A DNA stretch of 64,000 bases, taken from Amoebophrya sp. A120 (taxonomy: Eukaryota; Protista; Dinoflagellata). The notes under the pieces were generated by a model. The model did not search any database and was not told where the DNA came from. It saw only the letters and a program-made list of their open reading frames with translations. Below are positions 1 through 63,873 of the stretch, piece by piece (positions within the stretch are counted from its first letter, which is position 1; each line of letters begins with the position of its first letter). The position numbers and the translations under genes are program-made. The DNA is taken from the NCBI GenBank assembly GCA_905178155.1, contig CAJINV010000011.1, forward strand, positions 3,375,077 through 3,439,076, written 5' to 3'.

Positions 1-3000
1 CTGGACGTGTGGCTGAACGCCACCGTGACCAGGGTCCTCTTCGCCCCCGACGGAGGTCGTGAGAACAACAGCGAGAAGCTATCAGAAGGAAAAATCCCCC
101 CTCCCCATATTGAACAGGTATGCTTCCGAAAATTTGCGTTGCTGATTTGAGGTCACAAATCACATTTGTCTTGCAAGAAGACAAGGGCAGAAGCTTCCGG
201 CCCATTATGGAAGCGATTTTTCATGCAGCTGTTGGGCCTAAAGCTAAAGGGGAGCCGTTTGCCATGCTGAACAACTAGACCCATAGGCCCCTACCTAGCC
301 TGGGGATCTGGCCGCAGTGCCTTCCTGCAATGCGAAGCTGATTCGTGTACACAAATCAAGCGTCAGAAATTCCGTTTTGATATGGGGGGGGATTTTTCCT
401 TGCAATAGAAGCGCGCCACGGGCATCGAGGTGCAGGTCGGGCCCCACGGGCTGAACAAGCTGCGCGTGTACGCGTCGCGGGAGATCGTGTTGTCCGCTGG
501 GGCGCTCGGGACGCCGAAAATCTTGACGCTGTCTATGACCCGCTCAGACCTTACAATCTCAACTGTTACAATAGAATCTGGAAATCTGTGATGCAAGAAC
601 TGAATGATCTAGCCTACTCCCATAGGATTGCGCATGAGAAGTTTCGGAGTCCCAAACCCACCTGAAATCCGGCAAAATTTGTATTGCGAAAAGCTCAATT
701 CTCTCTGCGTTCCTCATGCTCTTCATGCAATACAAATTGCAGATTCTATTGTAACGTTTGAGATTGTAGGGTTTGAGCAGGCCATACTGTCCGGAATTGC
801 CGATCCCTATGATTTGGGACGCCTCGGGATCCTATGACAGTGCACAACTCCCCTGCCCCCTTATTTGTCGTGCAAAATGGCAAGCCAACCCTTTGCCTCT
901 TGGCACTGTTTGCATGACAAGCTCGTCTGGTAGCCCAAATAGCACTACAATCCAGTGCAGATTTGTCATGCAAAACCGGCTTTCTTGCTGATGCTTGTAT
1001 TGCCGTTCATGCTATACAAATGAGGGGGAGGGGGAGTTGTGCACTCTGATAGATCCCGGTCACGCAGGCAAGTTACGCGGTGGGGAAATATTTGAAGGAC
1101 CACTTATGCTGGGTGGGGTATGTGATGATGGAAAAACACTTCGGGAACCGCGACGACTGTGACACCGGCATCATGGGCAGTGAGCGCTTGGGAATTTTTC
1201 TCAACATAACGAAAGAGGAAGACGTAGACGTCGGGGGCTTTGCGGCTGGTACTTCTAGTGGGGAAGATGAAGGTAGTAGTAATGCGAGGACAAGTAGTTC
1301 CAGTGGTAGTTTATCGCAGGTAGAGTCAGGACAGAATCCCGACGAGCCCGAAACCGAAGAGCAAAAAGCGGAGAAAGCCGAGAAGCGAAAGCAGGCCATG
1401 TGGGAGAACGTACTGCGGTACGAAGCGGAGGCTTCGAAGGACGACGCCAGCACGCTGACCTACGAGGAGCACGGCGTCATCGTGCCATCTAGAAATAATG
1501 CCGAACAACCGAATGGAAGTAGTGGCAAGGAAATAGAAACGAGCGATGTATCATTGCAAACAGAAAGAAATCCTTCCACAGTTGTTGAAGATCTTTCCCG
1601 CTTTACCGACGCCGCTGACCAGTTCGCCGTCGAGGGAGAATTGCGGCTGTTTTCTACCTGCTATGAGGAGAGCGAGCTGCAGAAACCCGGCACGCCAAGT
1701 GCGCAGGTCGTGGCGGAAAATAGTAGTAACCAGGATGAGGAGAAGAAAGACAAAGACTCGACGACCGCGCTGCATTACACCGTGGAGTTTGTGCAGATGC
1801 GGCCGAAGACCACGGGCCGGGTCTTCGTGAAATCGAATCGGCCCGAAGTGCCGCCAACCTTCGAGTACCCGCGCATCTTTCCCGAAGACTACGACTACCT
1901 GGCGCAGATGGGCAAGTGGATGGGGGACCAATTCGCGTCCACGGGCAGTACGCAGCCGGAGCCCATCACCGAACAGGCGTTCTCCCCCGGCGCGCTCGAG
2001 TCCGCGCGGGCGACCGCGCGCCTCTACCAGCACCCCTGCTGCTCGGCCGGGGTGACCCGCGTGCTCGACCAGGATCTCAGGGTAATGGGCGTGAAAAATC
2101 TGCGTGTGGCCGACGCCAGCGCGTGGGCGGAGATTCCGTCGAGCCACCTGGCGGCGCCGACGATGGCCTTAGGGTACCTCGCCGCCGAGTGGATGGTGCA
2201 CGACGCCGGGGGGTCGAGACAAAGCGTTTTCGACGAGGATAAGGAAGAACACCTGCATGAGCTTGAAATAAGCCTGGAGAGCAAGATATTGAAAAGCGTG
2301 ATTTTGGACGCGACGGCGCGGATGTTGCAAGAGGACGGGCTGCAGGAGCTGAAGCAGTACTTGGCAGTTCTGTTTGACGGGCGTATGTCGGTGGTCGACG
2401 TGCGGAACGATGAGGAACTGAACAACGGCCTGCGCTTGCGCGACGAGATTCTCCAACGCGTCGCGAACACCGTGATTGCGATCTTCCAGCAGGTGAAGAG
2501 CATCGCCGATCGGGATCGCCAGAGTATCAAATGCAAATGTGTCTGGGTCTGGAACAAAGCAACTTGTCATGCTAAATCTGAATCATGTAAAAAACTTGTG
2601 TTGCATGATTGCCAAAAGCTGTCCGCTTTTGACCTAATGCCAATCCAGAGGCAGTTTCTCATGCAGGATTTGCATGATAGAATTCTCACAGAATCTGTCA
2701 TGCTACGTCCTACATACCAGACCTCATGGGTCATGGAAAACCTGCATGACACCCAAACATATTTGCAACGCATACAGATGAGCTTGAGCAGGGAACAAAT
2801 AAACCCAGCGGCCGGCGTCGAAGTTGATGTACCGGAAATCACCACCGCTCACCTGGGGTTGGTTCGGGACGCGGTGCTGCAGCAGGTGTTTGACTCCAGC
2901 TTTCCCGACCCGAATCCCGAAGAGAAAGCGCGGGTGCGGGACCACAAAAATGTCATGAAAATCTTGCTTCGAGCGCGATTGGTGGTGGGGAACAAGAACG

Positions 3001-5575
3001 AGGATTCTGTTCTTGCGCAGACGGAAGTTGTAGAAGATGCGCTGCCCTCCACCTCCGCGGAAGAAATAGACCGATCAACAAGTAGTGACCACTCCACCCG
3101 CATGGTGATCGATTACCCCCTATGAACTGCAACTTTGTCTGGGTCTGGGAGATTGCGAGATTTGTGATGCTAGTCTGGCATGAGTCTAACTCTAAACTCT
3201 GTATTGCGTGCCAACGAAGAGACGCCCTTGTCTGTCATGCAAAAACGCAGCTTCCCATGCTGAGTATGCAACTCTGAACCACGGAAAAGTTTGTCATGCT
3301 GGGGAGCGCATTGCAGTGAGCTTAGTATTCCCTTCCTTGCATCACAAATTTCCAGACCCAGACATATTTGCAATGCATACCCCCCCAGCTGCCCGGTGCC
3401 GGTGGTCGAAATCGTGACGAAATACGAAAAATCTGCCCTGCAGGAGTTGACCGAGCGGGAAGAAAACATCCCCGAAGGAATTACCTCCATATCGCGCGAA
3501 CTGCTCGCCGGCCGCAACTCCAAACCCGAGCCCGAGATGGTTGCCGACAAAATGCTGGCCAGTTTCGACGACGCGTCAAAAGGTTCGCCGAAAATACAGA
3601 GTGAAGAGAGAGATGAGGTGGAGCAAGCAGACGTAGAAAACGCCGAGTCTGTGGCCCCGCAGTCGGACGCGTCGTCGTCGCGCGCCACCCTGGTTGACTT
3701 CGGCGGGCACATCCTGGAGCGCACGGCGGTGCACAAGATCGCATTTGGCACGGGCACCATGGACGACCGGTATTTCCTGGATACCTGCGTGGCCTTTCTG
3801 CGCGCGGGTGGGCGCGTGCTGGACACGGCGCACTTGTACGACAACAATGAGCAGATCAAAACCTGTATCAAGCACTCGCAAATCCCCCGGGAGGAGATCG
3901 TCATCGTCACCAAGGTGATGCCGCTCGGCCGCCGGGAAACGGAGAAGGCACTGAGCAACGCGTTCGAAACGCTCGGCACGGAGGAAAATTTTCTGTACAA
4001 AAAGACCTTCCCGCTCGACTACGTGCTGGTGCACTGGCCAGGGAATAACAAGGACCGCAAGCTGCCCATCCGGGTGCCTGCGGACTGCGCCATGACGGCG
4101 GAGGAATCTGAAAATAGGAGTACTAACTCGCAGGAGTTTGCCGGCGCGAACACGGCACTTCCGGACGAGGGCAGTAGTGGTGGCGGAACGCCGGCACGAA
4201 ACCCGCCGCTCATGTACGGTGGCATCAAGGGGCCGGAGGAAGAAGGTGCAGAAGACTTCTTTCCGGGTAGTACAGGGACAAGCGCGAAGCGGTCGCTGCG
4301 GCCGGATTCCTGGCGGAAATGCCGGGAGGAAACGTACGCGACGATGATCGAGTGGCAGAACCGTGGGAAAGTGAAGAAAATTGGGTATAGCAACTTCGGG
4401 ATTCACCACGTAAACGAGTTTGCAATGAAGTTTCCAGACCACCCACCCCAGATGCACCAGATGGAAATGAACCTACGGAAGTCGCAAAATTATGTCGTAC
4501 GACAGTACAACTACCGAATAAATTGCGTGGCAATAAATCTTATGCTCCAGCAAAGGAAAACGAAAAACGAAGCTTGTCAAGTAGTACAATGAATCGGGCA
4601 AAAATTGTAAAAAGAAATCTGTGATGCAGAAGTATTCTGTTGCAATTTGTACGAGCGCACCGTCGAAGATAGTTTTGCGACGTCGATAGAACCCAGCGTA
4701 CGTGGATCTGCCCGTGGTGGAAACCCACGCGGTGCAAAACCAGTACTACAGCTCGATCAACCAGCCCTGGAATAAGTGCGTCATTATGGCCTACGGTCTG
4801 ATTGGGGGCAACAACCGAGGGCAGCTGAACCTGAAGCATGTGTATCCTGTGCAAAAGTATCGTACTCGTATTGCAATCATGCATTACAAATCTTTCACTT
4901 AAGGTAAATCAGCACTTTTACAAATTTTATCTCTTGTGCTGAGGAAATTTGTAATGCATTTATACGAGTGCGATACTTTTGCAATTCATAATGTGGATCA
5001 GATCGCAAAGCGGAACGAGATCGACCGGTACGCGATGCTGGTAAAGTGGATCGTTGACCACTTGAACGGAATCGTCCTCGTATCCTGAGGAAAATAAACC
5101 GATAGTACAACAAGAAGGGAACAACCCATATTTTTGCCGCATAAGTGGGGCTAGCCAGCACGTGATGTGCCAGTTGTAGAGTTTTGCGGTCGTTGACATT
5201 GTTGTACACAAACCAAGAACAGTGATTGGCGACTTCTGTTGCACGTGACATCAACTTTGGGTCACTTTAGTGCAGTCGAAGTCGTGCTGGCGACAGCTAG
5301 TATAATACTGTCGCATTAATACTACAGATCTCATCGTGCTTTTCATCCCATGCATGAAGATCATGACAAATATGGGTACTTGTACAGTCACGGTGAATAT
5401 TTTGCTCATTGGATACCGCGTCGCGAGTCGGAGCACGGACCGGCTGAAGGAGGCTTTGTGCTTGTGGAAGAGTTATCCGAATAGGTTACCAGAGACGGAC
5501 ATGACCTACCTGACCACGGTCGCGAACAACTTCTTCCGCAAGGCCTACACGCCCTACCCGGACGACATTGGATAG
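1..5575 (+). CDS. 5'-truncated gene: GMC oxidoreductase (C-terminal half) apparently fused to an aldo-keto reductase domain; 8 introner introns
   Basis: After removing the elements at 80, 534 and 833 it reads LDVWLNATVTRVLF...KRATGIEV...REIVLSAGALGTPKILTLSGI...VGKYLKDH, then HPCCSAG...LRVMGVKNLRVADAS (GMC motifs). After the element at 3121 it continues in frame into AKR motifs DTAHLY, IVTKV, LDYVLVHWPG, KKIGYSNF, QMEMNP, IAKRN...KW and VASRSTDRLKE. Stop at 5573-5575. Confidence 0.8.
80..407. mobile_element. Introner, family C (TIR ..GAAAAATCCCCC); 5-bp DR GAAGC
   Basis: gaagc|TAT...ATA|gaagc; IR ggaaaaatccccc / gggggatttttcc; removal joins ENNSEK-RATG. Confidence 0.85.
534..786. mobile_element. 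Introner, family B (TIR TATGACCCGCTCA..TTACAATCTC); DR CTGTC
   Basis: ctgtc|TAT...ATA|ctgtc; removal restores ILTLSGI. Confidence 0.9.
833..1051. mobile_element. Introner, family D (TIR ..AGTGCACAACTCCCC); DR GATCC
   Basis: gatcc|TAT...ATA|gatcc; removal restores LGIPVTQ. Confidence 0.9.
2525..2774. mobile_element. Introner, family A (TIR ..TGCAAA.ATGTCTGGGTCTGGA); DR CAGAG/CAGAT
   Basis: Family A ends; 4/5 DR; 3n length and stop-free, so the ORF reads through it. Confidence 0.85.
3121..3379. mobile_element. Introner, family A; DR CCCCC
   Basis: Removal joins ORF 1080 to ORF 3291 in frame. Confidence 0.9.
4474..4688. mobile_element. Introner, singleton family (TIR ..GTCGCAAAA.TAT); DR GAACC
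   Basis: TAC...ATA; removal restores QMEMNPAY. Confidence 0.8.
4843..4990. mobile_element. Introner, family E (TIR ..TGCAAAAGTA); DR ATGTG
   Basis: Removal restores LKHVDQIAKR. Confidence 0.85.
5081..5415. mobile_element. Introner, family G-like (TATCCTGAG.AAAATA); DR CCTCG/CCGCG
   Basis: Imperfect TIR; removal restores GIVLVASRS. Confidence 0.75.
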
Positions 5576-6457
5576 ATTGATATGGAATTCTTATACGTAA
5601 TTTACCACGCAAAGACATTGTATCACCGGGGCAAGAACTGCAAATATCTTCCAATCTCCTCGTTCGGTGGGTCAACCAAAATAAGTCACCCAAGAAGACG
5701 AAAAAGTAGCAGATGAATATTTCTTTCAGTTCTTGACAGACTGCATGTACCACTAGGAGCTTGCTCGGAGGATCTCCACCACGGGATAATGTCTCGTCTT
5801 CAGTAGCGCCGATTCATTTTACGTGCTCGACGATGATCTGCTTGGCGATCATAGATAGCTGCTCCCACGCGGGCATGCAGCGTTGCGTTTGCTAGGAGCC
5901 GATATAAGTAAACGGCTTTCGATGTTCTGAAACTTCAGAAAGTCGAGACACAGTCGCCCTGGATCGTCTTAACATCAATTTTTCGTGCCTTCCGATGGCT
6001 AATCCGACCGGTCGTGGTGTAAGAGGAAATTTGTCGCTCGATCGGAAGATTACATGCGCTTCTTTTTGTTGGATCGTAATCGTAATTCCATTTCGTCTTT
6101 ACTGGCGCACGATTTGTGTCTTGTCAAGCTTTGGCTTTCACTTTCGAATTGCGAGGTGCTCGAGAGTGATGAAGCAGTGCTGACCTAAGGATTTCCAACT
6201 GTACTCCATACACGAAGCCACTCGGTATATCCATCGTTCGTAGAAGAGATAATGAAGCGCACCAGCCGGGCAGTCTTGTGCTTCTACGACCTTCTTTTTT
6301 TGCCGCTTGTTCTTTGGTCGTCTTTCGCCCAGCACATTCGCTGTCGTGCTTGTAAAGTTTTTTCATCTTTTATTTGACCCGCAATTGTTCCATTCCTATC
6401 AGTACTACCGCAGCGAAGTGCAACTTGCAGGAGAGGACCAGGAGACATAATTTGGAA

Positions 6458-9400
6458 ATGGCGAGCCTGCAGGAGCGGACCGCTCCTGCCGCGGAGCGCT
6501 TAATCCAGTCCTTGCTCGAGCGCAATACCGTGAGGAAAAATCCCCCCTTCCAATGATATTAATTGAAATGGAAATCGGTGATGATCCAGGACTTGTGTAT
6601 TGATGTAGAGGCGGACCACTGCAGGTGGATGCAAGGCCTGGGCAGGGGTGTTTTGAGGTAGGCACTACGCAGGCCGCTCTCTGTCGAGTTGTAGGTCTAA
6701 CAGCGTCAGCACAAATCGCTTCCGTAAAAATGCACCGGGCTGGCTGGAGTGGCCCTGCTCTTGGTCTTGCAAGACAGACGCGATCATCTGAGGTCACAAA
6801 TCAGCGTTGCAAATTTATTTTAGGAGCATATGGCTGTATTTCAGAGCAGGGGGGGCTTATTTTTCCTCACAATACGGAAGGCGGGCGAGCTAGACGAAAA
6901 GCGGGCGCAGCGCATGAGCAGTATCATCGAAGGCATTTCTCTTCATCAGGGGCGCATGATGTTGCTGGCGGGCCGTCAACCGAATACAACGTCTGACATG
7001 GTGAAGCCAGGAGAACTGTCTTCTACTTGTTCGCCTTCTTCTCCTTCCGCGGAACTGCACCACCAGGCCAGCGCGCGGTGGTCCCAAGCAGCGAAGCAAG
7101 TGAAGCGGCGCATCTCCGGGGGCACGGAGGATTTGGACGCTAGTAACAAACTCCTATCTTCGCGGGGACTTAATACGGGACGAGCTGGAAAGGGCCTTCC
7201 TGCCGGAGTTGGAGGAGCTGGGCTGCGCGAGACAGTTGCCGCAGTGGCAGCTGCTTCGCCGAACAATCCCAGCCCAGCACTGGATTTTTCATTATCTACT
7301 TCGCAATTCCGGGCAAGAAGTAGTGCCGCCCTGTCGTCCACCAAAATAAACACAATGCCCTCGTCTACTTCCGTCAAACGGCAATACAGCACCCGCGGAG
7401 CTGCCCAGGGACTGCAACCGGAGCAGAACCTCCTCTGCCCGGCCGACATCTTCAACTACGTGGCCTTCGGGCAGGGTTCGCTCCGGCCGGACTCCCCGGA
7501 GGTGCAAGTCGCGACGGTGCTGTCTGGGGATGGTGCGCAGCACGTCGAGGAGGCCCAGGAGCGGCAGCTACAAACCGAGCGCGCTTCCCGGGGCTTCAGC
7601 ACCGCCGGACCGGGAAACCAGCACGCCCTGGACCTGGTGCGGCAGCGGTTCGGAGAGGAGAACTACGCGTGGCCCCCGCGGGGGTCTTCGAGTGTAGTTC
7701 TGGGTGGACATCAACAACATGGGCAGCAAGTGAACAACATCCCGACACCTCCTGCTCCAAAGGAGGTCGACGAAATAAAATCACAGCTGGGGACAGGAAC
7801 TACAACAAACGTAGTACGCAAGAACACGATCATGGCCGCTCCGCCTGCAGCTCCTTCGACCAGCAGGTTCAGCGACCGTATCCACGAAGTGCTGGCTCGC
7901 AACAGGGAGTTGCTACCCACTAAAATCCTCGTAGAGCAACATGATAATGATAAAAAGTACGACCAGACGGCGAAAGAAAATAATGACAATAATCTCCCAG
8001 AAGATAGTAAAAATCCGAGCAGCACGGACTTCTACACGACAATGCCGTCTGCCCCGGTGAAGACTTTTTTTCCGTCTCTCGCTCCGGCTATCCCTTCCAC
8101 GCTACATATTCACCTGAACGAGCAGAACCAAGTAACCGCGGGAAGTACAACTAGTAGAAGAACCTCTCCTCGTAGTAGTAGAGCCAGCCCGGTTCATCTT
8201 ACATCCTTCCGTGACGGCGCCAGTCCACCTTCTCACGCCGTCCAGATCCAGACGGTACATGACCGAACTATGACCTGCTCAAACGTTACAATCTCAAACG
8301 TTACAATAGAGTTTGGATTTTGCCTTGCATGACGAGCATGACAGACTCGGACAGCATTCCACTTTCTGCAGTACAAATTTCGCCAGATTGTAGTGCGGTT
8401 TGGGACTGCGGAACTTGTCATGCGCAAACCTATGAGAGTTGGCTACATAATGCATCCATTGCATCACAGATCTCGATATTCTATTGTAACGTTTGAGATT
8501 GTAACACCTGAGCAGGTTATACGAACGGGAGACCATGTAACCGTCTCCGTACCGATAAAAACGGGACACACGGCGCGACCTCTAGTTAATACTAGCCGGC
8601 AAAGCCCAATTCCGGCGAGCCCAATTTCGCGGCCGCGCGCGACGTTCTTGACCGTGGATGACCCAACCGGAAAAATTCCGCAGCTCATGCCGTGCCACAG
8701 CAGTCCGCGGCCGCTCCGCGCGGGTTCTAGAAGTAGTTCTTTGGAGCGCATTCGGCACGGTAATAAACCGGTCGTGACCTCGGTGTTTGGTGCGGATGGT
8801 GCGATGGTGACGTATGGCAAACCGGCCTTGCTTATCAAATGTAAAAATGTCTGGGTCGGGAAGAATGCAACTTGTGATGCTGTCTCTGCATTATACAAAA
8901 ATCTGTATTGCATGACCAGCAAGAGGGCTCCAGTTTGTGCTACATGGAGGGGGTATTTCTCATGCGGGATAGGCATCAGAAAGCCCGCTGAAAATCTGTG
9001 ATGCCAGGCTATGCATTAGTTATGCGTCATGTAAAATCTGCATGACATCCAGACCCAGACATTTTTACATTTGATATTGCTGCAGCCCACGTTGCGCTCG
9101 CCGTCGATGCGCGCGGGGGCCTCCGCAGCTTCGAGTGCAGCGAAGAAGTCTACTTCACGGTGGAGTACAACTAGCCCGGGGGCGAGGAGCGGGCGAGGGT
9201 CGGCGGGTGCCTCTTCACCGGCACTGTTCAGTCACCAGAGCTATCAAATGTGAAAATGTCTGGGTCTGGAAACTTGTGACGCTGGGTGGCGTCTCATGAT
9301 GAGGCCACAAGTGCTGGCTCAGCATGACAAGTTTCTGAGCTTCTAGGTGTTGCCTATTCTGCATGACAAACTGCGTTTCTGCATCACAGAAAAGTGGGGC

Positions 9401-11305
9401 TCTTGGGTAACGTGCATGACAGATTTAAGAGTCATGCCAGACAAGCATGACAAACATGCATTCTTCCAGACCCGCCAGACATTTTTGCATTTGATAAGAG
9501 CTTCGTGGGGCAGGACGAAGCGACCGTGCTCCAGCAGCGGGCCGCAAAGCGGAAGCGGCAGGAAGAGTTGCGGGCGAGCAAAAAGTATGCATTGCAAATA
9601 TGTCTGGGTCTGGAAGATTGCGAGATTTGTCATGCTAGTTTGGCATGACTCTTAACTCTGTATTGCGTGCCCAGGAATAGCCCCTCTTGTCTGTCATGCA
9701 GAAACACTGTTTCTCATGCGGAATAGGCAACACAGAGCCGCGCAAAAAATCTGTCATGCTTGGCGGTGCATTACAGTGCGCTTTCTATTCACTGGCATGC
9801 ATCACAAATTTCCAGACCCAGGCATATTTGCATCTCATAATAAGTTCACGAACATTTTCTACGGGTCGGAGTCTCTGTTCCACGGCGCGGATCTCTCCGT
9901 GCGGAGCCCCACGCAACTGGAGTACCAGAAAAGGCTCGAGGAAGAGGAGAAAAAAGATGAAACATCGAGTCGGAACACCTTCACATTGACGAAGCAAGTT
10001 GGAGAACAAGAAGAAGAAGAAGACCTTGCTGCGAATGGTACAACCGCAAACAACGAAAAAAATCACGACATATTTTTCGCACACCCGGAAATTGAAACTT
10101 TCGCGCAAAAAACGCCGGGGAGTGCTGCAGGGGCGAACGAAGCAAAGACAGAGAGTAGTAGAAGAACCACATCAGTAGCAGCAGAAGTTTCCCGAATCGA
10201 GCAGATTCTCGCCAGCAGTCCAGCTGCGACGTCGACACTTCCTTCGGTGGATGAAAAATTGAAGCAGGAAGACATTACAACAGGAAAAATCCCGGCAACC
10301 AAGAACTCTTTTCCTCCAGCCGAACAAAGTTCTAGCATCAAACCCGACGGCGCAGTAGAACTTCAGCAGGAAAAAAACGAAGGTGGAATGACGCCCGAGA
10401 TCAACAAAGCTGGGGATGACTTTCATCTTCAATTGGGACAGAACTTGGACAATGTCTCAGCAAGAACAAAAAAGAGGTTCTCGGTCGGTGCTGCGGGTTC
10501 CGTGACAGTCGTTCCAACGAGTGTAGTAGAGAAAACTAGTACCGGCGATCATCTTGATCTAGAACTACTTCGAGAAGATGACGCTGAAGCAGGGGGAAGC
10601 AGCACGTTGGAAACGGAGGTAGAAGATGAAACAAGAACTGGTGCAGCAGCGCCACCTTTGTCCACCTCGGCAGCTTCATCTGCGAAAGTAGAGCGTCAAC
10701 AACATCTCCACCACATTGTTCAACACGACGGCGCGAGCCGGCTCTATTTTTACCAAGAACAAAAGACAAGTTCTGGCACTGAAGATCAGGTAGAGCTGCA
10801 CGACGAGGACGACGGCAACAGGGGGCAGCGCGAAGAACCTACTGCGGTTGTTCTTGAGAATATCATGAGTGGCAAAAAAGCTGAAATAAGCACTTTTGCT
10901 ACTGCGGATCCACAACAAGAGCACAACCCCTTGCCTTCAAACTCGAGCACCGACAAACACACCTCCCGCAGCGAAGCGCATTTCGTCGCCAGGATAAAGA
11001 AAAAGGTACTTTTCTTGAACTGATTCTTTCCATGATGAGTATGTTTCATTTATTGTTTCAACGCACTGTACCTGTAGTCACTGCTCCTCGATTCGTGTAG
11101 AGTTTTTGTTTCACTATCACTAGCGTTGTTGCTTCTATCACAGGTCGCGAAGACCCGGCCCGACGTCCCAGAGGAGTCAGTGGAAGTGGAGACTGGACAT
11201 CACGACAGTTTCGCTTTTGTCTACGGCCTCGATCCGGCCACGAACCAGCGCGAAATGCTGTTCGTCGCTCCGAGAATAAAGAAGGGGGCTTCTACTTCCG
11301 GATGA
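6458..11305 (+). CDS. Hypothetical low-complexity (S/P/E-rich) protein; 5 introners plus a GT-AG intron at 11006-11143
   Basis: The ORF segments 6374, 6830, 8393, 9071 and 9716 (with a short exon at 9502-9585) join into one frame on element removal; last exon 11144-11305 ends in TGA. Confidence 0.65.
6526..6874. mobile_element. Introner, family C; DR CGCAA/CGGAA
   Basis: IR gtgaggaaaaat / atttttcctcac; removal gives LERKAGEL. Confidence 0.8.
8269..8521. mobile_element. Introner, family B; DR CGAAC
   Basis: Long TIR, perfect DR, frame restored. Confidence 0.9.
8833..9076. mobile_element. Introner, family A; DR TTGCT
   Basis: TIR tatcaaatgtaaaaatgtctgggtc; perfect DR. Confidence 0.9.
9242..9496. 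mobile_element. Introner, family A; DR AGAGC
   Basis: TIR plus perfect DR; frame restored. Confidence 0.9.
9586..9839. mobile_element. Introner, family A; DR AAAAG/ATAAG
   Basis: TIR plus 4/5 DR; joins RASKK-FTNIF. Confidence 0.85.
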
Positions 11306-12165: not shown

Positions 12166-15100
12166 ATGTCTCTGTACGCAAGCCGGGAACCGACCGACAT
12201 TCTGGGCTATCACTCCAGTCCGCAGAGGATAGAAGCGACTTTGCAGACGGATGTGGACCTGTACTTCCGGGGGGACACGGAAGAGTTGGTAGCGTCGCTG
12301 CGTCGCGGATCGCCGACGTCGGAAGGTGATAAAGAAGGGATCACGGGAAGTGGTGCTGCTGCGCTAGGGAACAACAACAAAGTGCGTGGAGCAAGCACGA
12401 AAAGAACGACGAGCCTTTCAACATCATCCTTTGCAGGCACACCTGCCGTCATCTCGCCCGTAGCTCTTCCGTTTGTCCACGAGAATGAGGAGGGCTTAGC
12501 GAGCAGTGTAGAGGACAAGTACATAGAGTTGTCTCACGATGGAAGTAGTAGAAGCCCTTCATCCAGCAACGAGGAAGTGGCTTCCACTCCGGAAACTCCG
12601 TGCTTCTACAAGCGGTGGGGGTCTCAGCGGAGTAGCCGGAGTTATAATTCCACGCTCTCAGGAGAAGTTTCCTCTTCAGGCGGTGGAAGAAGGTCGGCCG
12701 GTTCATCCTTGCTCGGGGCACGAAATGAGGACCACCTCGATCCGGACAGTGAAATTATGAGTGGGACCTACCAGTCGAGTGGAAGTAGTAACGCAGGAGC
12801 AGCTTCCAAGTCAAGTAGCGAGAAACACGGTAATATTGCACGGCTCAGAAGAAAAAAAAGCCGCAGCAATATACTTGGAAAGGGAAAAAATGATCTCCAG
12901 ACATCATCGTCGGTGTCCTCTTTTGCGAGCAGTGCTACTGCTGTCAGTGGGTTTTCCTCGGGGACGACGGGTAATTATCACCCGACACGAACAAACAACC
13001 CGGATGCATCGAAAGCGAAACGCGTAGGACTGTTGCGGAAAATTGTGAAGAATGTTGTTCTGCCGCTGTTGGAGCTCGGGAGAAGCAAATCCAAAAACCA
13101 CGAGCGAGCTGATGGAGGAATAAAAGAAGCCTCGTCTCGACGTCCGGGAGGTTTCAATACCGCTACGTCCTCGCGTGGCATCAACAAACACGGGATCGTG
13201 GACGAAGATCATGAGATGAATAAATCTTCAGGAAGACAAGCGGGAGAAGATCTTCATTCAATTTCAAGCAACGGCAGACGAAGAAGACCATCTCTGCCCC
13301 CCCGGCTCCGGTCTGCGAGGCACCTACTCGCGAGCCGAGAGTATGAACGACAGGTCGAAGCGCTGCTGCGCCAGTATTGGCAGGATTTCCAGATGAACGC
13401 GGAAGAAATGGAGCAGAAACTTGCTGAAGGAAGGCGAGAGAGGATCACTTGCACTGACGAAAAAGGGCAGCATCGCCATTCTAGGTCGTGTAGTACAAGA
13501 AGTGACGCCAAGGCCGCAAGGACCTCGGCAGAAGGAGAAGAGGAGGCACCATACGTTGATACTGGCCAGCACACGACTTCTTCCCGACCGAGTTCCACGG
13601 CCGGCGTTCAGACAGAGGAGACCGGGGATGTGGTCTCTCGGCTTGACCAGCACAGTAGCAGAGTGGCGATTTCTCACCTTCCTGAGGTGTTTGGAATGAT
13701 CGGGGGACGACAGCATACTTCCAGTGTAGAACGCCTTACTAGCAATGATATGGCTAGTATGTAGTGAGGTCACCGAACGGTTCTAACCGGGGAGTTTTTT
13801 TGCCACCCAGACAGCAAAACGGCCGTCAGTTTTCAAGCGGCCGGAAGCGTTTTCTGACATAAAAGATTTTCAATTACCAAGCGGCCGGGGCTTTGCCATC
13901 AAACAAGCCCGGTCGAAAACTATCGATTCGCACTTGATAAAACGACGCAGGAGAGCCGGCAAAAGGGGCGCCCTTCTGAGGCGCCCACCGCCTTGGTTTC
14001 TGGCGATTTGGGGCGCCCAAAAAGAGGCGCGCAAAACACGCGCCCGAAATCAGAACAGCGAAACAGCATGGCACGGCCGCGATTTCGGAGCATTTTGGGC
14101 AGCCGCGAAGGCGGCCGCCTTTCCGCCGGCTTCAGAGCCTGGGAAGCTTTGCAAAAAGCGCCGGCGGGAAAAATAAAAACGCAAAAGAGAAAAAGCGCGC
14201 CAGACGCGCAAAGCCAATCCGCATGCTATGGGTCCGGTTTCCCTTCGCTTTTTGGGCGCCCCCCGTGGCGCCCGGATCGGCCCCATAGCATGGGGCCTCG
14301 CTTTCGGAATGGAATTTCGGGAATTTCCCAAAATTTGCGATGTTTATCAAGCGGCCGCCATACCGTGCGGCCTAACGTTACTCGCGGCGGTATGGCGATC
14401 CCAGAAAAAGCAAAGCCGCGGCCAAGGCGATGGCCGGCAAGAAAACGCCCACGGCCTCACTACCTCCGCCCCGGCGGCTATATTTGGTACTATGAGTCAG
14501 AGCAAGGATTTGTACCCTCCAGCTGTTGACACCGACGAGCACGATGAGAAGAGCTCGGGGAGAAACAGCGGCGCAAGCGTCTTTAGAGCCTCCGACACAA
14601 AGAGAAGTCTGCCGTCCTTCGAAAAGAACATTGTGCAGCAGATTGCGAGCAACGCACAGCTGCACAACCGCCGGCTGCACAGCTTCTACCGGGATGAAAG
14701 CCGGCACACGCTGCGTGACTTGGTCCTTGCGCCGGAGTCCATGGATAGTAAGGACAAAAATCTAGCCGGTGCTATTACTTCCTTGGAACAAATAGATCCG
14801 GTAGATAGACTATCGACATCTACATCTAAGTCTAGTAACCAGGATCATCGCGTTGGAGGCTTTCATAGCGGTAGTGTAGTTGCAGGAGCACAGGAGCCGT
14901 TGGATCACGATGAACTACCAGAGGAGCCAGCAGAGAGAAGCATTTATGTCGATGCGGAAAACGAAAAGGAAAACAACACCACCGAGAACTCTGCCACCAG
15001 GCTCGAAGATGTTCTGCTGTCAAAGTCCGAAACAATTTTCTCTGCCAGGTGGGAAGCCGAAGTCGAGGAGGACTTTTTGCGGAGCCTGGACGACCTGAGC

Positions 15101-27400: not shown

Positions 27401-27946
27401 GCATTTCTCATGCGGAAGGTGCATCAGGAAGCCCTCTAAAAGTCTGCGATGCTAGGTCATGCATTACAGGCGTCATGTGTCATGAGAAACATGCATGACA
27501 AACTTGGCAATCTTCCAGACCCAGACATTTTTGCATTTGATATGGACGACAAAAACACGAAGTCGAAAAGGGAACACAATTGGGGTGTCATCTTCAGCCA
27601 TGATGCCTTCGAGAAGATGACCGATGAGCAGTCTGAGATGGCCGATGCCCAGCTGGATCATTATTTTTTGATGCTCACCGAAAGCGCGGAAGCGCTGGGT
27701 ATGGCAACGGATGAGGGCGAGGGTGATGTCGACCACTACTGGAAGCCGCTGCGTTCGCTTTGGTCAAAAACAAAAAAATTCTTCTTCCATCGGAGAAAAG
27801 GTATAATGAAAATAATGAGAGAAGAGCTACAGGCGACAGCCGAGGCGCAGCAGCAGGAAGAAAAAGCCCGCGGACTTGTCGATGAGCGAACTTGGAGTGC
27901 GCATCTGGCTCACCGAACAAAATCTTTGAACCAAATAACCTTCTAG
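24497..27946 (+). CDS. Hypothetical ~1000-aa protein with an N-terminal hydrophobic (TM/signal-anchor) segment; one introner
   Basis: Long ORF; FFLASICLCAVGINLFISGWVA; removing the element at 27281 joins HQLD-DKNTKS and runs to the stop at 27946. Confidence 0.7.
27281..27542. mobile_element. Introner, family A; DR TGGAC
   Basis: TIR plus perfect DR. Confidence 0.9.
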
Positions 27947-47900: not shown

Positions 47901-50900
47901 GGTGGAGTCGGAGTTCGTGAAGCGGTTCGGCAAGAAGAAAGCCGCCGTGAAGGAGGCGCCAAAAAAGGAGGACGCGGACAAGAAAAAGGAGGACAAACCG
48001 AAGTTGTATGGATTGCAAAAACGTCTGGGTCTGGAAGATTGCAACTTGTCATGCTAAATCCGAATCATGCAAAAATCTGTGTTGCATGAGTGCCAAAAGC
48101 TGTCCACCTTCGACCAAGTTGGGAGGGAGCTTCTCATGCAGGATAGGCATGATAGAGACCTCGCAGTTTCTGTCATGCTAGGTCCCTCTTCCAATGTGTA
48201 TCGGTTGAGGACTGCCCCCTTCATCCTAAGCGCCATCAGCCATGGTATCTGGAAAACCTGCATGACAAGTTTGCACTCCTCCAGACCCAGACATATTTGC
48301 AATGCATAAGTTGAAGCTGCTGACGATCATCGACGACCCCATGAAGCAGGGCGGTCTGAACGCGGCCTGCAAGACCCTGCCAGAACCCACGGTATTGCAG
48401 CGGGCGATACTGGACCTGGACGACGTAGAAATCGACGTGAACACCTTGGAATGGGTCCGGCGGGACCTGTGCCCGGATCCGGGCCAGTTGGCGCAGCTGA
48501 ACACGCTGCGGAACGAAAACAAGGGCGTCCCCTTCGCCGTGCCAGAAACCTACATGCTCGCGATCGCGCACGTATACTTGTTTTTGTAGCGCCGGGAATT
48601 ACTTCTGTACTTTGGGAAAATATAAATAACTAAACGCATTATCATGATGTTGAGCCTGGAAAAAGACTCGCTTGCCAATGCTGTGGCTTTGGATTTCAAG
48701 AATCAGTATCGAAAATCTATAGCGAGATGAAAACTACATTAGGTTCCCGGGTACATGCAGCGTCTGGACTGCTGGCTTTTTTCGCGCACCTACGAGGAAA
48801 GGCTGAAGAAGTGCATGACCGCGTACTTGGCATTTCAAGCCGTGATGCGGAGTTTGCGCACAAGTAAGGAATTTCGGAAGCTTCTCGGCCTGATTCTGTG
48901 CGCCGGGAATTACCTGAACGGGGGGACCGACCGCGGGCAGGCGGAGGGCGTGGATCTGGACGTGTTGACCAAACTTGACGCCGTGAAGGACGTGGAGGGG
49001 AAGATGCTGAGTTTTTGTATGCATTGCAAATATGTCTGGGTCTGGAAGACAGTAACTTGTGATGCTGAGTCTACACCCTGTAAAAATCTGTGCTGCATGA
49101 CTGCCAACAGTTGTCCACTTTTGACCAGGTTGACAGGGAGTTTCTCATGCGGGATAGGCATGATAAAGTTAGAGATCTCACAGCTTCTGTCATGCTCAGT
49201 GCTGCATTCCAGACCTCATGGGTCATGGAAAACCTGCATGGCAAGTCTTCCATTCGTCCAGACCCAAACATATTTGCACTTGATACTTTGGGTCGTCCAA
49301 CAATTTTTCACGGCGCCGTTTTTCACGCGGCAGCAGGGTCCGAACGGGGAGGACCCAAGAGAGCTGCTGTTTGAGGAGCTCCGCCCACTCTTCTCCGCGG
49401 TGCGGCGACGGATCGAGAAGTCGAGCGATGGCGTCGAGTCCCTGGCCAAGCAGGTGTCCGTCTCGATCGAGGACTACGACCAAATCGCGGACCAAATCAA
49501 ACAGGAGTGCGACCAGCGGTACGAGATGCTCCGCGCCTGCCTGTGCCAGTTCGAGGACCCCGCGGACAGTTTCCGGACGGTGCTTGCGCCGCTGTTCGCG
49601 ACCGCTTCGGAGTCGTATGAGAGTGCACAACGACAACCCCTCCTCGCCCTTATTTGGATGGCATGACAAGCAATACAAACACCAGCACAGCACATGGATG
49701 CTGTGCATCACATGTTCATGCGCCGATTGTAGCGGTGTTTCCAGAACTTTTCATGCCAACAGTGCTACAAGGCCACAACAACTGGATTGGGATTTTTGCA
49801 TGACAAACGAGGGGCAGGGGAGTTTTCCACCCTCATAAGCCCGTGGACGAGTTGATCGCGAAGAAAAAACAGGTAAAGCAGGAGTACGAAGATTTGTTGA
49901 AGTATTTCACGATGGGACAAGTGAAGGCGGCGACGTTGATCAAGATGATCGACGACATGCTTGTTCCCGGGGACCAGATCACGAACAAACCCGAAAAATT
50001 GAAAAAAGCCTACTTTGTCCCGCAGTTCTGCGGGAACCGCACCCCGACGGCAGACAGCATCATGGCCCTTTGGGACCTGAAGGAGCCCGAGTTGCGGTCG
50101 GAAGATATGCATTGCAAATATGTCCTCTGGGTCTGGAAACTTGTCATGCTGTTTGACGAATCCCGCGGACGCCTTCATTGACAGCCAAGCATGACAAGTT
50201 TTGGAATTGCTATAGTGTTGCTTATCTGCTTGACAAAGTGCGTTTCTGCATGACAGAGAAGTGTGGCTTTTGGGTGGCGTGCAGGACAGACTTGAGAGCC
50301 ATGCTAGCCGTGCATGGCAAGCCTTGCATTCTCCCAGACCCAGACATATTTGCATTTGATAGAAGAGTCGCTGGGACAAAAGAAGCCGCGAGCGACCGGT
50401 GCGCGAAAGACGGAGAATCGGCGGGGAATCCGGGGAAAAACTTCCACCGCGACGGGTGGTGCAGACGGGGCGAAGACGAGCGTGCGAGGTGCTGGGATTG
50501 GGAAGAATTCCGCGCTGAATGTTGGAAGTGAGAGTATTTCTAAAGACAGCACAGAACAACAAACCACTAGCACTGAGAAAAAAGGTGAGCAGGACAAGGA
50601 AGGTCCAAATCGTACCGGTGATGAAGTGGAGAAAACTGCTCATGGTGACAAGGCACCACCAGAGAAACAAGCAGGAGAGCTGCAAGGGTCAGCCGCAGGT
50701 ACACCAAATAAAGCATCGAATGCCGTGGTGGAACAAGTGAAGAAAAGCCCCGCAACTGCAACACAATCATCAGAAGACAAAGCCGCTGCAGCAGCGGACA
50801 CCAGCAAAGCTAGCAGCACAAATTCGCCAAAGCGAAGTCAGCGCCTCTCCGTCGCAGCAGCAGAGAAACAAGAGAACCACGACTCAACTTTGACGCCCAG

Positions 50901-56789: not shown

Positions 56790-57538
56790 AATATTCGCAC
56801 TTTGTGCGGTCGACTATTGCGGAGCCACCTGCACGAAGATGCATCCGGAATGTAAAGGGTACGTCGAGCAAACGGCCACGTCGACCTGTGTGCTCTTCGG
56901 CCTTGTGTTATCCACAGTAAATTTCCCGTACACGACGTACAAATGCTGTCTACTCCCTTCAATCGTAGTCATACCCGTACATTTACAAAACTTTCCTTCA
57001 ATCTTAGTCAGCATGACAAGTCTTGAAGGAAGTTGTCGAAATTTGTCGTGCATTTTGTACATGTGCGGGAATTTTGTATAGCATATGTGTCAGGAAAGGT
57101 GGACTTGACCGCGGACGGCGGTAAGGACAAATTCCACAAATGGTGCGAAGACAAGTGCTATCAACTGCAAATACGTCTGGGTCTGGAAGATGGCAACTTG
57201 TCATGCTAGATCTGAATCATGCAAAAAATCTGTGTTGCATGATTACCAACAGCCGCCCTTTTTTACCAATTTGAGAGGGGATTTGATTTCTCATGCAGGA
57301 TAGGCATGATAAAGATCTCACAGAATTTACCATGCTAGGTACTGCATTCCAGACCTCATGGGTCATGTAACACCTGCATGACAAACCTTGCATTCATCCA
57401 GACATGTTTGCAATGCATAAGTGCCCTGCAACACTTACAACTGCACCAAGCGAGGGGGGAAGTCCAGCCTCCGCGGGCCGACTGAGCTGCATCAGTTTGT
57501 TGATGCTAGCCTTTTCGCTTCTTGTGGCTTGGAACTAA
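56790..57538 (+). CDS. Small Cys-rich PAN/apple-like protein with a C-terminal hydrophobic (GPI-like) tail; 2 introners; start not resolved
   Basis: DYCGATCTKMHPECKGYVEQTATSTCVLFGLV-SGKVDL...WCEDKC-PATLTTAPSEGGSPASAGRLSCISLLMLAFSLLVAWN*. Confidence 0.5.
56909..57085. mobile_element. Introner, singleton (imperfect TIR ..AAATTCCCG.ACA); DR TGTGT
   Basis: tgtgt|TAT...ATA|tgtgt; frame restored. Confidence 0.75.
57159..57419. mobile_element. Introner, family A; DR AGTGC
   Basis: Family A body; perfect DR. Confidence 0.9.
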
Positions 57539-59029: not shown

Positions 59030-60972
59030 ATGACAGATCCATTCCGGCTCTACTTCAGAGACCAGTCCTCTGACGAGGAGGAAACGGACAGGCTTTTGTA
59101 CTTTTACGGCGACGAAAGTTCGAGCGACACCTCTAGTAGAAGTAGCTCCTCGGCAAATAGTACTAAAAACTCGAACGAGGTCCGCGTTGTCGAGAGGCCT
59201 GTGCAGATAAAAAACCAGGATGCCGGCGGGGAGAATCACGAGGCACACGATTCTTCGGCGCAAGACGTTGAGAGCTTGCCGAAGGGTACTACAAGTCTTC
59301 AGACAATAAGAACTCGGCGCGACCAGCGAGGTCAAGAGCCGGTACAACTTTTCGGCGGTCCCGCCCCCGCTGCGAGGAGGTCGGCGGCATCCGTCGACCA
59401 CCACCACCACCAGGAGGCAGGAGCTGCGTCAGGTGCCGCTACAACTTCTAGCGGGCATCATGATTCTGGGCATCATCATCATCACCATCATCATCACCAC
59501 CGTAGTGGCCACGGCACAGAAGCTGCGGCCAAGGAGGACGGCGGCGGCCTGTTGGCGTACTTTTTCAAGGCGGTGTACGTCGAGGGTAGCGGTAAAAACT
59601 ACGGGATCAGTGCCGGGGACGATGATGAAGAGTTTGGGCACCATGGTACCCACCACCATACGCACCACAGCGGAAGCAAGCATGAGGACAGCAAAGTCCA
59701 TTTGATGGCAAAAGGTTTGACGAAAAGCAAGAACAGCGAAAGCCTTGCGCCGGGGATGATCACAGACGGAAAGTCGCCCGGTGATAGAGGTGTGTGTTGC
59801 TGTCCGCTTGATCGCACACACCCCATAGGCGTATGCGGAATGGACAAGAGGCACTCGCCACCTTGGCACTTGAGGGTATAAATTTTGGAATTCGTTCTCT
59901 GTTTTCAGTTCATGTTTTGCTCATTCCTGTTTGCTTCATCTGCGATGATCATCTTCTTCTACTATCTTGCCTTACGTTTTCGTAGCGCGCGATATAACGC
60001 AGCGCGCATCCGTCACCGAAAAAACAAAAACTCCTCCCGTCAGGTATTTATGCCATGCTGCACGTACGTGAATTGGGCGGGCTGCGACGCAGTTGCCATA
60101 TTAATGTCCACCACCTGGTGGCTATCCTGAGTAAAAACGTACCCACACCAGAGTCAGGATGGGGATTTTGCGACACAAACCTAGGAGTTTTGTGAGTCAC
60201 GCATGACAAGTTGCACTCTGCAGTGTAGTGCAGGTTAGCAAGTGCAGCCGCGTCACAGATTCATCTGCTCATCCTGTTCACAGCATCACAAATTCCAAAA
60301 CACGATTGGAAATGGCTCTCATGCGGATGCGCATTACAAGTCTTCCTGTCTTTGCGACTGGTGTGGGTACGTTTTTACTCAGGATAGTGGCTGCTTTTTT
60401 GGCCTGTGTTTTACGTTACCTGCTGCTGGTATCAAATGTAAAAATGTCTGGGCCTGGAAGGTTACAAGGTTTGTCATGCATATTCTGCATGAGTCAGGAT
60501 GTCTGTAATGCATGATCTAGCATCACATATTTTTAGAGGCCTTCCTGATGCCTATTCCGCATGACAAATGCCCTCCACGCGTAGCACAAACCGGACTCCT
60601 CTTGCTGGTCATGCAATACAGAATTTTTTAGAGTCCAAAGTTAGCATCTTCACAAGTTCCAACCTTCCAGACCCAGACACTTTTGCAATCCATAGCTGGG
60701 AGCCGACGTCCTACAGTACGACAACGGACGCCGACGACTATCTTAATAGGGTAGGCGCCCCAGTACAGGCAGAAAATAAACAGAGCGCGAGCGTAGACGT
60801 AGCGGCCCTGCGGAACGTACCAACCATAGCCCCCCAGCACCGGAGCGGATCTGACGGTCAGAAGTTTCCGGACCGCGACCAAGCACACAGCGTTTACACA
60901 GGCATAATCAACGCGCCGCAGGCGGCGAACCCGGGTGGCAGTAACGGAGGTGGCAGTGCGGACAATGTTTGA
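59030..60972 (+). CDS. Hypothetical His-rich protein with a Cys-rich membrane segment; GT-AG intron 59876-60043 and 2 introners
   Basis: Poly-His tracts; joined exons give VFMPCCTYVNW...STTWWLLFWPVFYVTCCWEPTSY; stop at 60972. Confidence 0.6.
60123..60386. mobile_element. Introner, family G; perfect 29-bp TIR; DR GTGGC
   Basis: tatcctgagtaaaaacgtacccacaccag / ctggtgtgggtacgtttttactcaggata. Confidence 0.92.
60430..60694. mobile_element. Introner, family A (opposite orientation to 27281); DR GCTGG
   Basis: Body is the reverse complement of 27281-27542; perfect DR. Confidence 0.9.
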
Positions 60973-62314: not shown

Positions 62315-63873
62315 ATGACGGACCTTTCGTCCTCTCTCTCGGGAGCTTCAAGTTCCACTTCAAGTTCCGGGTCCTCTTCGTCCAGGAGAAGTTTTATCAC
62401 GACCAGCAACTCGAGCTCATCCTCTGCGTCGTCAGCCTCAGAATCGGCTTCTTCTACGTCCTCTTCCAGCGCGTCCGGTTCTTCATCTTCCAGCAGTTTT
62501 TCGTCAGCTAGAGACAGCAGTCACCTAGGCCCACCGTCGGAAGTGCCAGAGATTGACGATGATGGGTCAAAAATGTCATCCTCTGTGGCCACCTCTTTGA
62601 TGTCCTGGACTGTGAAAGAACCGATTTATTCACATTCCTCCTCCCACCATCGAGAGCCAGAGAGCTCCATCACGGCCCGTGCCCGCGCGCTGAAGGCGCA
62701 GGAGCCGATTTTCCTCTTTGCGCCCTCGTCGAGAAGTGGCACGACATCATCGGCCTCTTCGTCCGGGAGCGGCTCATCTTCTGCCGCGGGGTCAAAGAGC
62801 AGCAAAGGTGGCTCTGGCTCCTCGTCATCGTCTGGGGGTAGTAGTAGCAGTAGCGGTAGTTCTAGTGCGACTGCGAGCAAAGAGTCCTCGTCCACAGCGA
62901 AGAAGTCGTCAGAAAAGTCTTCGAGCAAGCAGACGTCTTCCTCCTCCTCCAGTAGCGCGACGTCATCATCCTCTCCCGTGACCAGTTCTACCGATCAAAA
63001 GAAAAGCACTTCCGAGAAGAGCAAGCGGAAAAGTACTAGCAGGAAAAGCATAGACGACTCGAGTGGTGCAGCAGGGGCAAACATGAAAAAATCCGTCTCG
63101 AACATTACAACCGTAACGGAGCCGGGGCTACACGCGGAGGGCGAAGCACCTGCGCCAGGGACTTTGAACATGGCTCAGCCGCAGGTAATTCTTTCCGGAT
63201 CGGAGTCCGCACAAGATTCTTCTTCATTTGCGGCTAGCAGTAAGGAGCAGAACTACGGGACGAATTATGCGGGGAGTAGAACCTCTGCAGCACAACGACG
63301 GGAGCTGAAAGTGCAGCGGGCACTGGAGCAAACGAGACGCGCACTGGACGCTGGCGCACGGATGCACGCGGTCGGCGCGGAAATGACGGCGAAGAAAAAG
63401 GCGCTCGCGGAGGCGAAACGAGTAGCGGACGACGAACTGGTCCGGCGGTCGCAGCTGGAGCGGATCGCAAGGCGGAAGGGGTTGGGAACCCGGGTGGATT
63501 TGCTGACCAGTCACGACTATGAAATGCAAAAATGTCTGGGTCTGGAAGAATGCAAGATTTCGATTTGTGATGCAGGTTTTCCATGACCCATGAGGTCTGG
63601 GATGCGAGACCCAGCATGACAGATTCTTTGAGGTCTCTATCATGCCGTTCCTGCATGAGAAACTCCCTCTCAACTTGGTCAAAAGCGGACAGCTTTTGGC
63701 ACTCACGCAACACAGATTTTTGCATCATTTAGATTTAGCATGACAAGTTCTAATCTTCCAGACCCAGACATTTTTTCAATCCATAATGACGACGTGCATT
63801 CGAAAGCGGAGCGGGATGCGTTCCTAGCCGGGATGTTTTCCCAAGGCATGGAGATGTTGGAAAGGAGAAAAGA
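62315..63873 (+). CDS. Ser-rich hypothetical protein, 3'-incomplete (continues after a GT donor at ~63874)
   Basis: Poly-Ser ORF; removing the element at 63518 gives TSHD-DVHSKAERDAF. Confidence 0.6.
63518..63785. mobile_element. Introner, family A (opposite orientation to 48007/49018); DR ACGAC/ATGAC
   Basis: TIR plus 4/5 DR. Confidence 0.88.

Follow-up and report, generated by a model that had tools for sequence, protein, structure and literature searches.

How introns without GT-AG borders, which account for more than 60% of introns in parasites of the genus Amoebophrya, are removed is an open question in the literature. For Amoebophrya A120, 29,850 such introns with an inverted repeat (IR) of the form TAT-N7-AAA and direct repeats of 3-5 nt have been described (Farhat et al. 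2021, PMC7789003; this and the other papers are cited from the available parts of their text). The border of these introns was left as unknown there because the direct repeats hide it. The same question is raised by a stretch of 64,000 nt from Amoebophrya sp. A120 (contig CAJINV010000011.1, positions 3,375,077 to 3,439,076; the window in the following), which carries 35 elements with terminal inverted repeats (TIRs) and a 5-bp flanking direct repeat. The elements themselves are not new, and their class is already in print. The novel point is the position of the cut: elements covered by RNA-type contigs are missing there together with 5 nt, and the cuts probably lie 1 nt upstream and 4 nt downstream of the element.

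The elements were delimited by two scans. An unanchored scan for a 5-bp repeat with inverted ends, in which TAT was not demanded, gave 40 matches. All 20 matches with at least 19 of 25 arm matches begin with TAT; five Markov controls gave 9-18 matches each, none with more than 18 arm matches. A scan anchored on TA[TC] that accepted up to 2 repeat mismatches gave 39 rows, four of which were dropped (one cross pair, two nested inner arms and one weak pair). The remaining 35 elements (148-349 bp, Table 1) span positions 80 to 63785 of the window, which has a GC content of 52% and its long reading frames on the + strand. Their ends read TA in 70/70, TAT in 68/70 and TAT-N7-AAA in 53/70 cases. The flanking repeat is of arbitrary sequence. 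It is exact in 26 elements, has one mismatch in 8 and two in 1 (34/35 within one mismatch), and only length 5 fits, repeats of 6-9 bp being exact in 0/35. A reading made from the letters of the window (the sequence-only reading) had reported 35 uniform TAT/TAC...ATA elements with TIRs and a 5-bp repeat. The elements were recovered as described, but the word uniform is too strong for a set with 9 of 35 repeats imperfect. The absence of GT-AG borders, noted in the same reading, was also found here: GT/GC..AG occurs in 0/35 elements in each of six registers, and a same-length GT/GC..AG pair outside the repeat is present in 3/35.

Seven families, of up to 17 copies (main family in Table 1), account for 30 of the 35 elements, and a BLAST search for more copies of the elements found no others. 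The elements are short and non-coding, with TIRs, a repeat of constant length and copies in both orientations, features typical of MITEs (miniature inverted-repeat transposable elements). Their insertion points are clustered, with 14 of 34 gaps at or below 200 nt (5.2 expected; 14 was reached in 0 of 5000 simulations); our guess at the cause is local hopping or permissive chromatin. The same families were found by a motif scan in one other assembly, at 159 or more loci in 420 kb, and all figures for this related assembly refer to the matches listed. Exact 5-bp repeats flank 129 of 153 elements there, and element copies are up to 95% identical. Proteins of the related assembly agree with entries named Amoebophrya sp. 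A120 (a Rab5-like gene is identical in five exon pieces, a SET-domain gene is 90% identical), and the assembly may not be independent of the window's organism.

To follow the elements into transcripts, four sequence runs were compared with window positions 1-20000, which hold 13 of the 35 elements. Runs X3 and X5 are one sample, labelled RNA by guess, and X1 is of DNA type. Only contig pieces were used, and the joints of the DNA run are dominated by paralogous element ends. After removal of each element plus 5 nt (element+5), the window agrees to the letter with three RNA-type contigs (X5 record 16, 2095/2095; X3 record 10, 1756/1756; X5 record 17, 2529/2529). These contigs cover 8 elements, those at 4843, 8833 and 9242 by letter count alone. 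RNA-type pieces that start at 1052 and 2775 support the removal of elements 833 and 2525 at one border, which brings the supported elements to 10 of 13; the elements at 80, 534 and 6526 have no row listed. Besides four elements, X5 record 17 also skips the GT-AG intron at 11006-11143 and thus behaves as a mature mRNA, in line with the earlier observation that normal GT-AG introns lie beside the elements. Elements 9242 and 9586 are inserted in opposite orientation and are both skipped, so the removal signal is symmetric. A raw RNA run (X9) gave 5 reads only, all on repeats.

The DNA-type contigs of X1, at a depth of 41-50, cross every listed exon-element border unbroken and contain elements 4474, 5081 and 6526 whole. 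Unique bins are flat at a depth of 45-70; element bins sum to 1e4-2e5, a value that fits many copies and is no copy number. Since the elements are kept in DNA-type contigs and missing from RNA-type contigs, removal takes place in RNA; the exception would be a DNA form, rare or limited to one stage, that the contigs hide. For 8 elements with exact counts, and for 2 others at a single border, removal of element+5 at the RNA level is stated with high confidence. Of the two routes left open by the sequence-only reading, precise removal from transcripts was borne out, whereas programmed DNA excision is made unlikely by X1 contigs, which at background depth pass from exons into elements and contain three of them complete.

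The reading frames of the host genes agree with removal. The length of element+5 is not a multiple of 3 in 20/35 elements, and its deletion yields open frames of 1175, 1095, 1702 and 678 codons. Frames of at least 150 codons on the + strand make up 75.5% of the sequence and contain 33/35 elements (P=0.004); the remaining two lie in a short frame that is open for at least 38 codons on either side. Pfam searches of the exons identified GMC, aldo-keto reductase (AKR), ankyrin and FH2 domains, as anticipated by the claim that removing an element with one repeat restores GMC, AKR and FH2 motifs; short AKR exons searched singly in Pfam gave no match. When the two formin-like paralogues were used as mutual empty sites, removal of element+5 was the best alignment at 8 of 11 informative junctions. 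The sequence-only reading had placed every element in a coding exon. In the related assembly the preference for exons is strong but not absolute (189/233 elements vs 480/981 random points).

Mismatched repeats resolve the ambiguity of the border. The RNA-type pieces that start at 9842, 5419 and 2775 carry bases 2 and 3 of the 5' repeat copy and base 5 of the 3' copy, which places the join after repeat base 3 or 4. Three orthologue tests were obtained from 16 elements of the related assembly with context examined (2/5 non-silent base-4 cases and 1/2 base-5 cases), on the assumption that the changed repeat copy is the intronic one. At locus L047, base 4 of the 5' copy gives Ala, found in 82/97 homologues and in the 5 closest, and base 4 of the 3' copy gives Asp, found in 1. 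At locus L023, the orthologue has base 4 as in the 5' copy (Leu) and base 5 as in the 3' copy (Gln). All six tested mismatched repeats (3 RNA contigs, 3 orthologous proteins) fit a join after base 4, and the intron would therefore read N-TAT...ATA-NNNN. This fixed register, with a cut 1 nt before and 4 nt after the hairpin, is likely. A join after base 3, compatible with the RNA-type pieces, was rejected on the tests at L047 and L023. A codon-score test of the register favours the 5' copy at base 4 in 7/9 cases, but its control failed (base 1: 7/13).

In register 4, T stands at +2 and A at +3 in 35/35 elements. Only these two positions are fixed; GT/GC..AG is found in 9/215 cases with 6-7 expected. 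Seven of the 8 canonical donors listed in the window (one RNA-shown, seven predicted) start with GTA. The published predominant splice pairs of A120 have T at +2 in 9/9, and those of A25 start with TT in 9/9, both being aligner-dependent. The published donor and acceptor counts fit register 4, but aligners may slide within the repeat, and the counts are not independent evidence.

A second repeated intron-like family, overlooked in the sequence-only reading, obeys the same rule of length. Its two copies of 730 nt are 90% identical, carry a 3-bp repeat and not a 5-bp repeat, and interrupt frames of about 1100 and 1290 codons. The span from TAT to ATA is 725 nt, and 725+5 gives in-frame removal. 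As TAT and ATA each occur at fewer than 1% of window positions, this fit suggests that the TAT...ATA+5 rule is a property of the remover rather than of the target duplication. The first formin-like gene has a predicted GT-AG intron of 2.5 kb (32167-34665), in which a truncated third copy of the family (33826-34406) lies. This intron also holds two copies of the end of the preceding exon (33565-33671, 34415-34509) and a 30-bp tandem array (33061-33198).

A hairpin-guided, remodelled spliceosome of the U2 type would account for these observations as follows. The repeat and the copies in both orientations point to insertion with a 5-nt staggered cut, and the elements are likely non-autonomous DNA transposons that would stay in DNA. 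Element+5 would then be removed at the RNA level, where the paired ends form a predicted hairpin, in the register indicated by the mismatched repeats. The hairpin would replace U1 and AG recognition, while the catalytic core may still see U at +2 and A at +3; such a spliceosome would measure from the hairpin and would not read G at +1 or a terminal AG. Predicted folds are stable compared with shuffles (median z -7.4; 33/35 below z=-2), as any TIR would lead one to expect. The stem ends in 3 bp of A-U (positions 1-3, which pair well), followed by poorly paired positions 4-7 and a firm helix at positions 8-13, so that the element ends could open. At TIR position 4, C is found more often at the 5' end in the strict set of related loci (L001-L159; 46 vs 23, p=0.008 uncorrected); the window shows no such excess.

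The U1 small nuclear RNA (snRNA) was undetected in Amoebophrya, while U2, U4 and U6 were detected (PMC7789003). With U1 reported missing, U2, U4 and U6 present and T and A fixed at +2 and +3, a remodelled spliceosome is preferred, and an even chance is given to the removal of the elements by such a hairpin-guided machine with cuts 1 nt before and 4 nt after. Given removal at the RNA level and a fixed register, the narrower proposal that the hairpin stands in for U1 and AG while the core reads U at +2 and A at +3 is slightly favoured. On the 5' side, positions 1-2 are unchanged in all 53 free ends (1.6-3.2 changes expected), a weak hint of a constraint on the 5' T-A (0 vs 3 changes). A separate second system working beside the spliceosome, as proposed in the sequence-only reading, is one possible reading of these data; the placement of T at +2 and A at +3 by the join agrees no less well with a remodelled spliceosome.

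No transposase scored above the Pfam cut-off in the frames of the window or in 63 of 75 long open reading frames (ORFs) of the related loci, 12 overlapping or duplicate frames being left out. Two long copies of the main family in the related assembly, of 834 bp (L031:632-1465) and 631 bp (L061:3862-4492), are flanked by exact 5-bp repeats and have no ORF longer than 137 codons. An Rfam search returned 0 families, and a search for the TIR motif in viral contigs returned 0 matches.

Several observations weigh against the proposed register and its reader. Contigs omit minor forms. The start of X3 record 14 at 14485 agrees with register 2 or 3 of the 730-nt family and not 4; it could also be where an unspliced read ends. 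In the same family, pairing of TAT with ATA is not predicted (P about 0.03 or less), although an adjacent helix is. Among the elements, G at +1 is found in 83/250 (76 expected), a terminal AG in 24 (19.1 expected), G at +5 in 41 versus 57 and a branch-like 3' end in 34 versus 48 (p=0.15), and beyond the built-in TA the orientation biases expected of spliceosomal signals are absent. TAT is changed at 12/513 sites, with 7.6-15 expected under neutrality, in a sample of 153 elements found without TAT; purifying selection on TAT, which had looked significant with 0/180 in the window, was overridden by this larger sample. A comparison of G-U with A-C mismatches gave no clear RNA-level signal (28 vs 23, p=0.58; 173 vs 142, p=0.09). 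A repeat copy that was free as intron would predict 39-43% silent changes among the mismatches, but 23/39 are silent at loci L001-L159 (P 0.008-0.03, post hoc); this excess may reflect sliding of the register in a minority of transcripts. Finally, neither a lariat nor a circle nor a protein was observed, and the catalyst is an inference.

The strongest competitor is a spliceosome-independent endonuclease that would cut either flank of the hairpin at a constant stagger, with an RNA ligase joining the exons and a linear or circular hairpin being released, as has been proposed for the nonconventional introns of euglenids. RNase III-type and tRNA-splicing-type routes have been proposed (PMC12621601), and euglenid introns come off as circles (PMC11282704). 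Such an enzyme would fit a removal that is indifferent to orientation and to the bases at +1, -2 and -1, and the 3' spacer of 4 nt exceeds the 5' spacer of 1 nt, resembling the 3 and 5-6 nt of Euglena (PMC12501133). However, it leaves T-A at +2/+3 and the GTATG-type start of the 730-nt family unexplained, and the Euglena sequence signature is absent from the elements. A nuclease and ligase are considered a serious but somewhat less probable solution than the remodelled spliceosome.

Precise DNA excision in some life stage or nucleus, with transcripts made from an edited template as for the internal eliminated sequences (IESs) of ciliates, is very unlikely. The loss of an element with one repeat does resemble pointer-type excision, the DNA-type evidence is a single run that is possibly the window's own source, and contigs omit rare alleles. 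Against it stand the X1 contigs, which are unbroken at the borders and include three complete elements at unique-DNA depth, and the presence of the elements in the related assembly. In addition, a cell without a germline/soma split would inherit the loss of an element. The literature search gave no report of programmed DNA elimination in Amoebophrya.

Artefacts of template switching by reverse transcriptase typically arise where short direct repeats flank a hairpin. That all skips are such artefacts and true transcripts retain the elements is the least credible explanation, for although introns seen only in complementary DNA (cDNA) exist (PMC8240250) and all RNA evidence here is cDNA-derived, the assembled form of one contig has four consecutive skips and that of a second has three or four, retention would shift 20/35 frames, orthologous proteins carry the residues predicted from the join, and the 730-nt family follows the length rule without a 5-bp repeat.

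Table 1 Elements and introns of the window (repeat: 5-bp direct repeat, mismatches numbered by repeat base; RNA: RNA-type contigs)
Feature	Position	Strand	Observations
TIR element	80..407	+	exact 5-bp repeat; in GMC-AKR gene; pairs with 35462; no RNA row listed
TIR element	534..786	+	exact repeat; family with 8269 and 43964; no RNA row listed
TIR element	833..1051	+	exact repeat; pairs with 49616; X3 record 9 departs from the window sequence at 1052
TIR element	2525..2774	+	17-copy main family; mismatch base 5, RNA keeps 3' copy; X5 record 16 starts 2775, 0 other letters
TIR element	3121..3379	+	main family; exact repeat; RNA joins 3113 to 3378
TIR element, TAC start	4474..4688	+	exact repeat; in AKR domain; whole in DNA contig 3354-4868
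TIR element, shortest (148 bp)	4843..4990	+	exact repeat; pairs with 37448; RNA support by letter count only
Singleton element, weak TIR	5081..5415	+	mismatch base 3, RNA keeps 5' copy; X3 and X5 pieces start 5419
Singleton element, TAC start	6526..6874	+	mismatch base 3 (silent); whole in DNA contig 4964-8295; no RNA row listed
TIR element	8269..8521	+	exact repeat; RNA piece ends 8263
TIR element	8833..9076	+	main family; exact repeat; RNA support by letter count
TIR element	9242..9496	+	main family; orientation opposite to 9586; RNA support by letter count
TIR element	9586..9839	+	main family; mismatch base 2, RNA keeps 5' copy; X3 and X5 pieces start 9842
Canonical GT-AG intron	11006..11143	+	skipped in X5 record 17, which also skips four elements
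Second family, 730 nt	13757..14486	+	3-bp repeat; TAT at 13758, ATA ends 14482; removal gives 1097-codon frame; putative intron
TIR element	20372..20622	+	main family; exact repeat
Second family, copy two (90% identical), 730 nt	21114..21843	+	removal gives 1288-codon frame; putative intron
TIR element	27281..27542	+	main family; exact repeat
TIR element	28773..29041	+	main family; exact repeat
Singleton TIR element	29119..29425	+	exact repeat
TIR element	35112..35320	+	exact repeat; pairs with 43582; in first formin-like gene
TIR element	35462..35740	+	exact repeat
TIR element	35796..36049	+	main family; exact repeat
TIR element	37448..37603	+	exact repeat
TIR element	39968..40255	+	mismatch base 2 (silent); pairs with 60123
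TIR element	43294..43550	+	main family; sole base-4 mismatch in window (silent)
TIR element	43582..43802	+	exact repeat
TIR element	43964..44222	+	exact repeat
TIR element	44274..44537	+	main family; exact repeat
TIR element	48007..48308	+	main family; exact repeat
TIR element	49018..49285	+	main family; mismatch base 1; directly after FH2 match
TIR element	49616..49837	+	mismatches bases 3 and 5; join predicted to combine the two copies
TIR element	50106..50361	+	main family; exact repeat
Singleton TIR element	56909..57085	+	exact repeat; in short Cys-rich frame
TIR element	57159..57419	+	main family; exact repeat; same short Cys-rich frame as 56909
TIR element	60123..60386	+	exact repeat
TIR element	60430..60694	+	main family; exact repeat
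TIR element	63518..63785	+	main family; mismatch base 2 (silent)

In window positions 1-5572, a single frame fuses a GMC oxidoreductase to an AKR domain. Adjacent ankyrin and FH2 (formin-like) paralogues at 31554-41766 and 42153-51537 carry elements at differing positions. The frame at 52430-54700, with a solute-binding domain (SBP_bac_3) fused to a ketopantoate reductase (ApbA), is interrupted by predicted GT-AG introns. The region 54800-56400 is GC-rich (62% in 54001-56000), gave no Pfam match in the four frames tested and is possibly another repeat. At 56791-57540, the removal of two elements opens a short Cys-rich frame with a hydrophobic tail and no Pfam match, which presumably resembles a PAN/apple surface protein.

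With a fixed register of 1+4 nt, searches for lariats and circles could start from exactly defined donors, acceptors and candidate branch positions, and sliding annotations would be corrected. Such a register would also explain how transposons with a 5-bp duplication land in exons without cost. More tentatively, the lineage as a whole may splice most of its introns by a molecular ruler that places the cuts 1 nt upstream and 4 nt downstream of any paired TAT...ATA ends, whatever bases stand at the junction; this generalization is possible but so far doubtful. If true, any transposon that makes a 5-bp duplication would be removed scarlessly, and the 730-nt family would have evolved an internal spacer to fit the ruler. 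T-A at +2/+3 in A120- and A25-type elements would then mean that splice-site choice has moved from U1 and AG recognition to an RNA hairpin, and a hairpin-ruler spliceosome would represent convergence on euglenid geometry.

Compared with known systems, the elements share neither GT/GC..AG borders nor a branch-site preference with U2-type spliceosomal introns. Ciliate IESs are absent from the DNA of the transcribed genome, whereas the elements of the window are kept in the X1 contigs (one run). The TA..TA termini of IS3EU and GingerRoot transposons (PMC10045372) are found at 70/70 ends in the window, and integrase-related transposases give duplications of 4-6 bp. The target-site duplication (TSD) of IS3EU/GingerRoot is usually 6 bp (PMC10045372), in contrast to 0/35 exact 6-bp repeats in the window and 0/516 raw pairs in the related assembly. 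The introns of Fritillaria are likewise transposon-derived and non-GT-AG with TIR and TSD, and are removed there by an altered U2 spliceosome; they keep the preferred ends AG-AC and AG-AT (PMC11282704, PMC13326754), whereas +1, -2 and -1 are free in the window.

Euglenid nonconventional introns (PMC12501133, PMC11282704) share an end-joining TIR hairpin, junction-blurring repeats, a MITE-like origin and a longer unpaired 3' spacer, and their trans factors are likewise unidentified in the available texts. The Euglena signature N3-CDG...CHG-N5-6 followed by a purine (PMC12501133) is not found in the window, where TAT/ATA with an offset of 1/4 takes its place. Full-length circles have been reported in Euglena (PMC11282704).

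A search of the openly readable literature yielded no paper that fixes the junction or the machinery, and the available parts of two reviews (PMC11282704, PMC11453091) add no mechanism. The sequence-only reading was right that the elements match the Amoebophrya introners with inverted and direct repeats, which are in print (PMC7789003, PMC12130899) with their removal machinery unsettled in the available texts; the initial TAT, the repeat of 5 bp and the TA/TA termini seen here had been published as well. In A120, family fam38 is annotated 'Ginger; 5-bp TSD, TA/TA termini' (Gozashti et al. 2025, PMC12130899); it is about 810 bp long with ORF homology, whereas the window elements are shorter and non-coding. 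As in the window, numerous TIR families in that paper measure 150-320 bp, and their splice sites are mostly non-canonical. Automated TSD calls for its large families are 2, 4, 5 or none, in contrast to the window, where only 5 fits. Its family fam26 (730 bp, 3-bp TSD, GT/AT donors, acceptors all non-canonical) matches the 730-nt family of the window by description. The A120 introners of PMC7789003 share the TAT-N7-AAA IR, a repeat of 3-5 nt including a 5-bp example (Fig. S19 legend), a length near 240 nt, a large number of families, canonical introns next to non-GT-AG introns with RNA support, and co-oriented genes. Their sites are called variable in that paper, whereas the 5-bp repeat is present in all 35 window elements and the tested joins lie after base 4. 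With hairpin IRs, a repeat within 3-5 nt, a TAT-N7-AAA motif, non-GT-AG removal from RNA and membership in families, the window elements are, as judged by these features, A120-type introners without a difference in kind.

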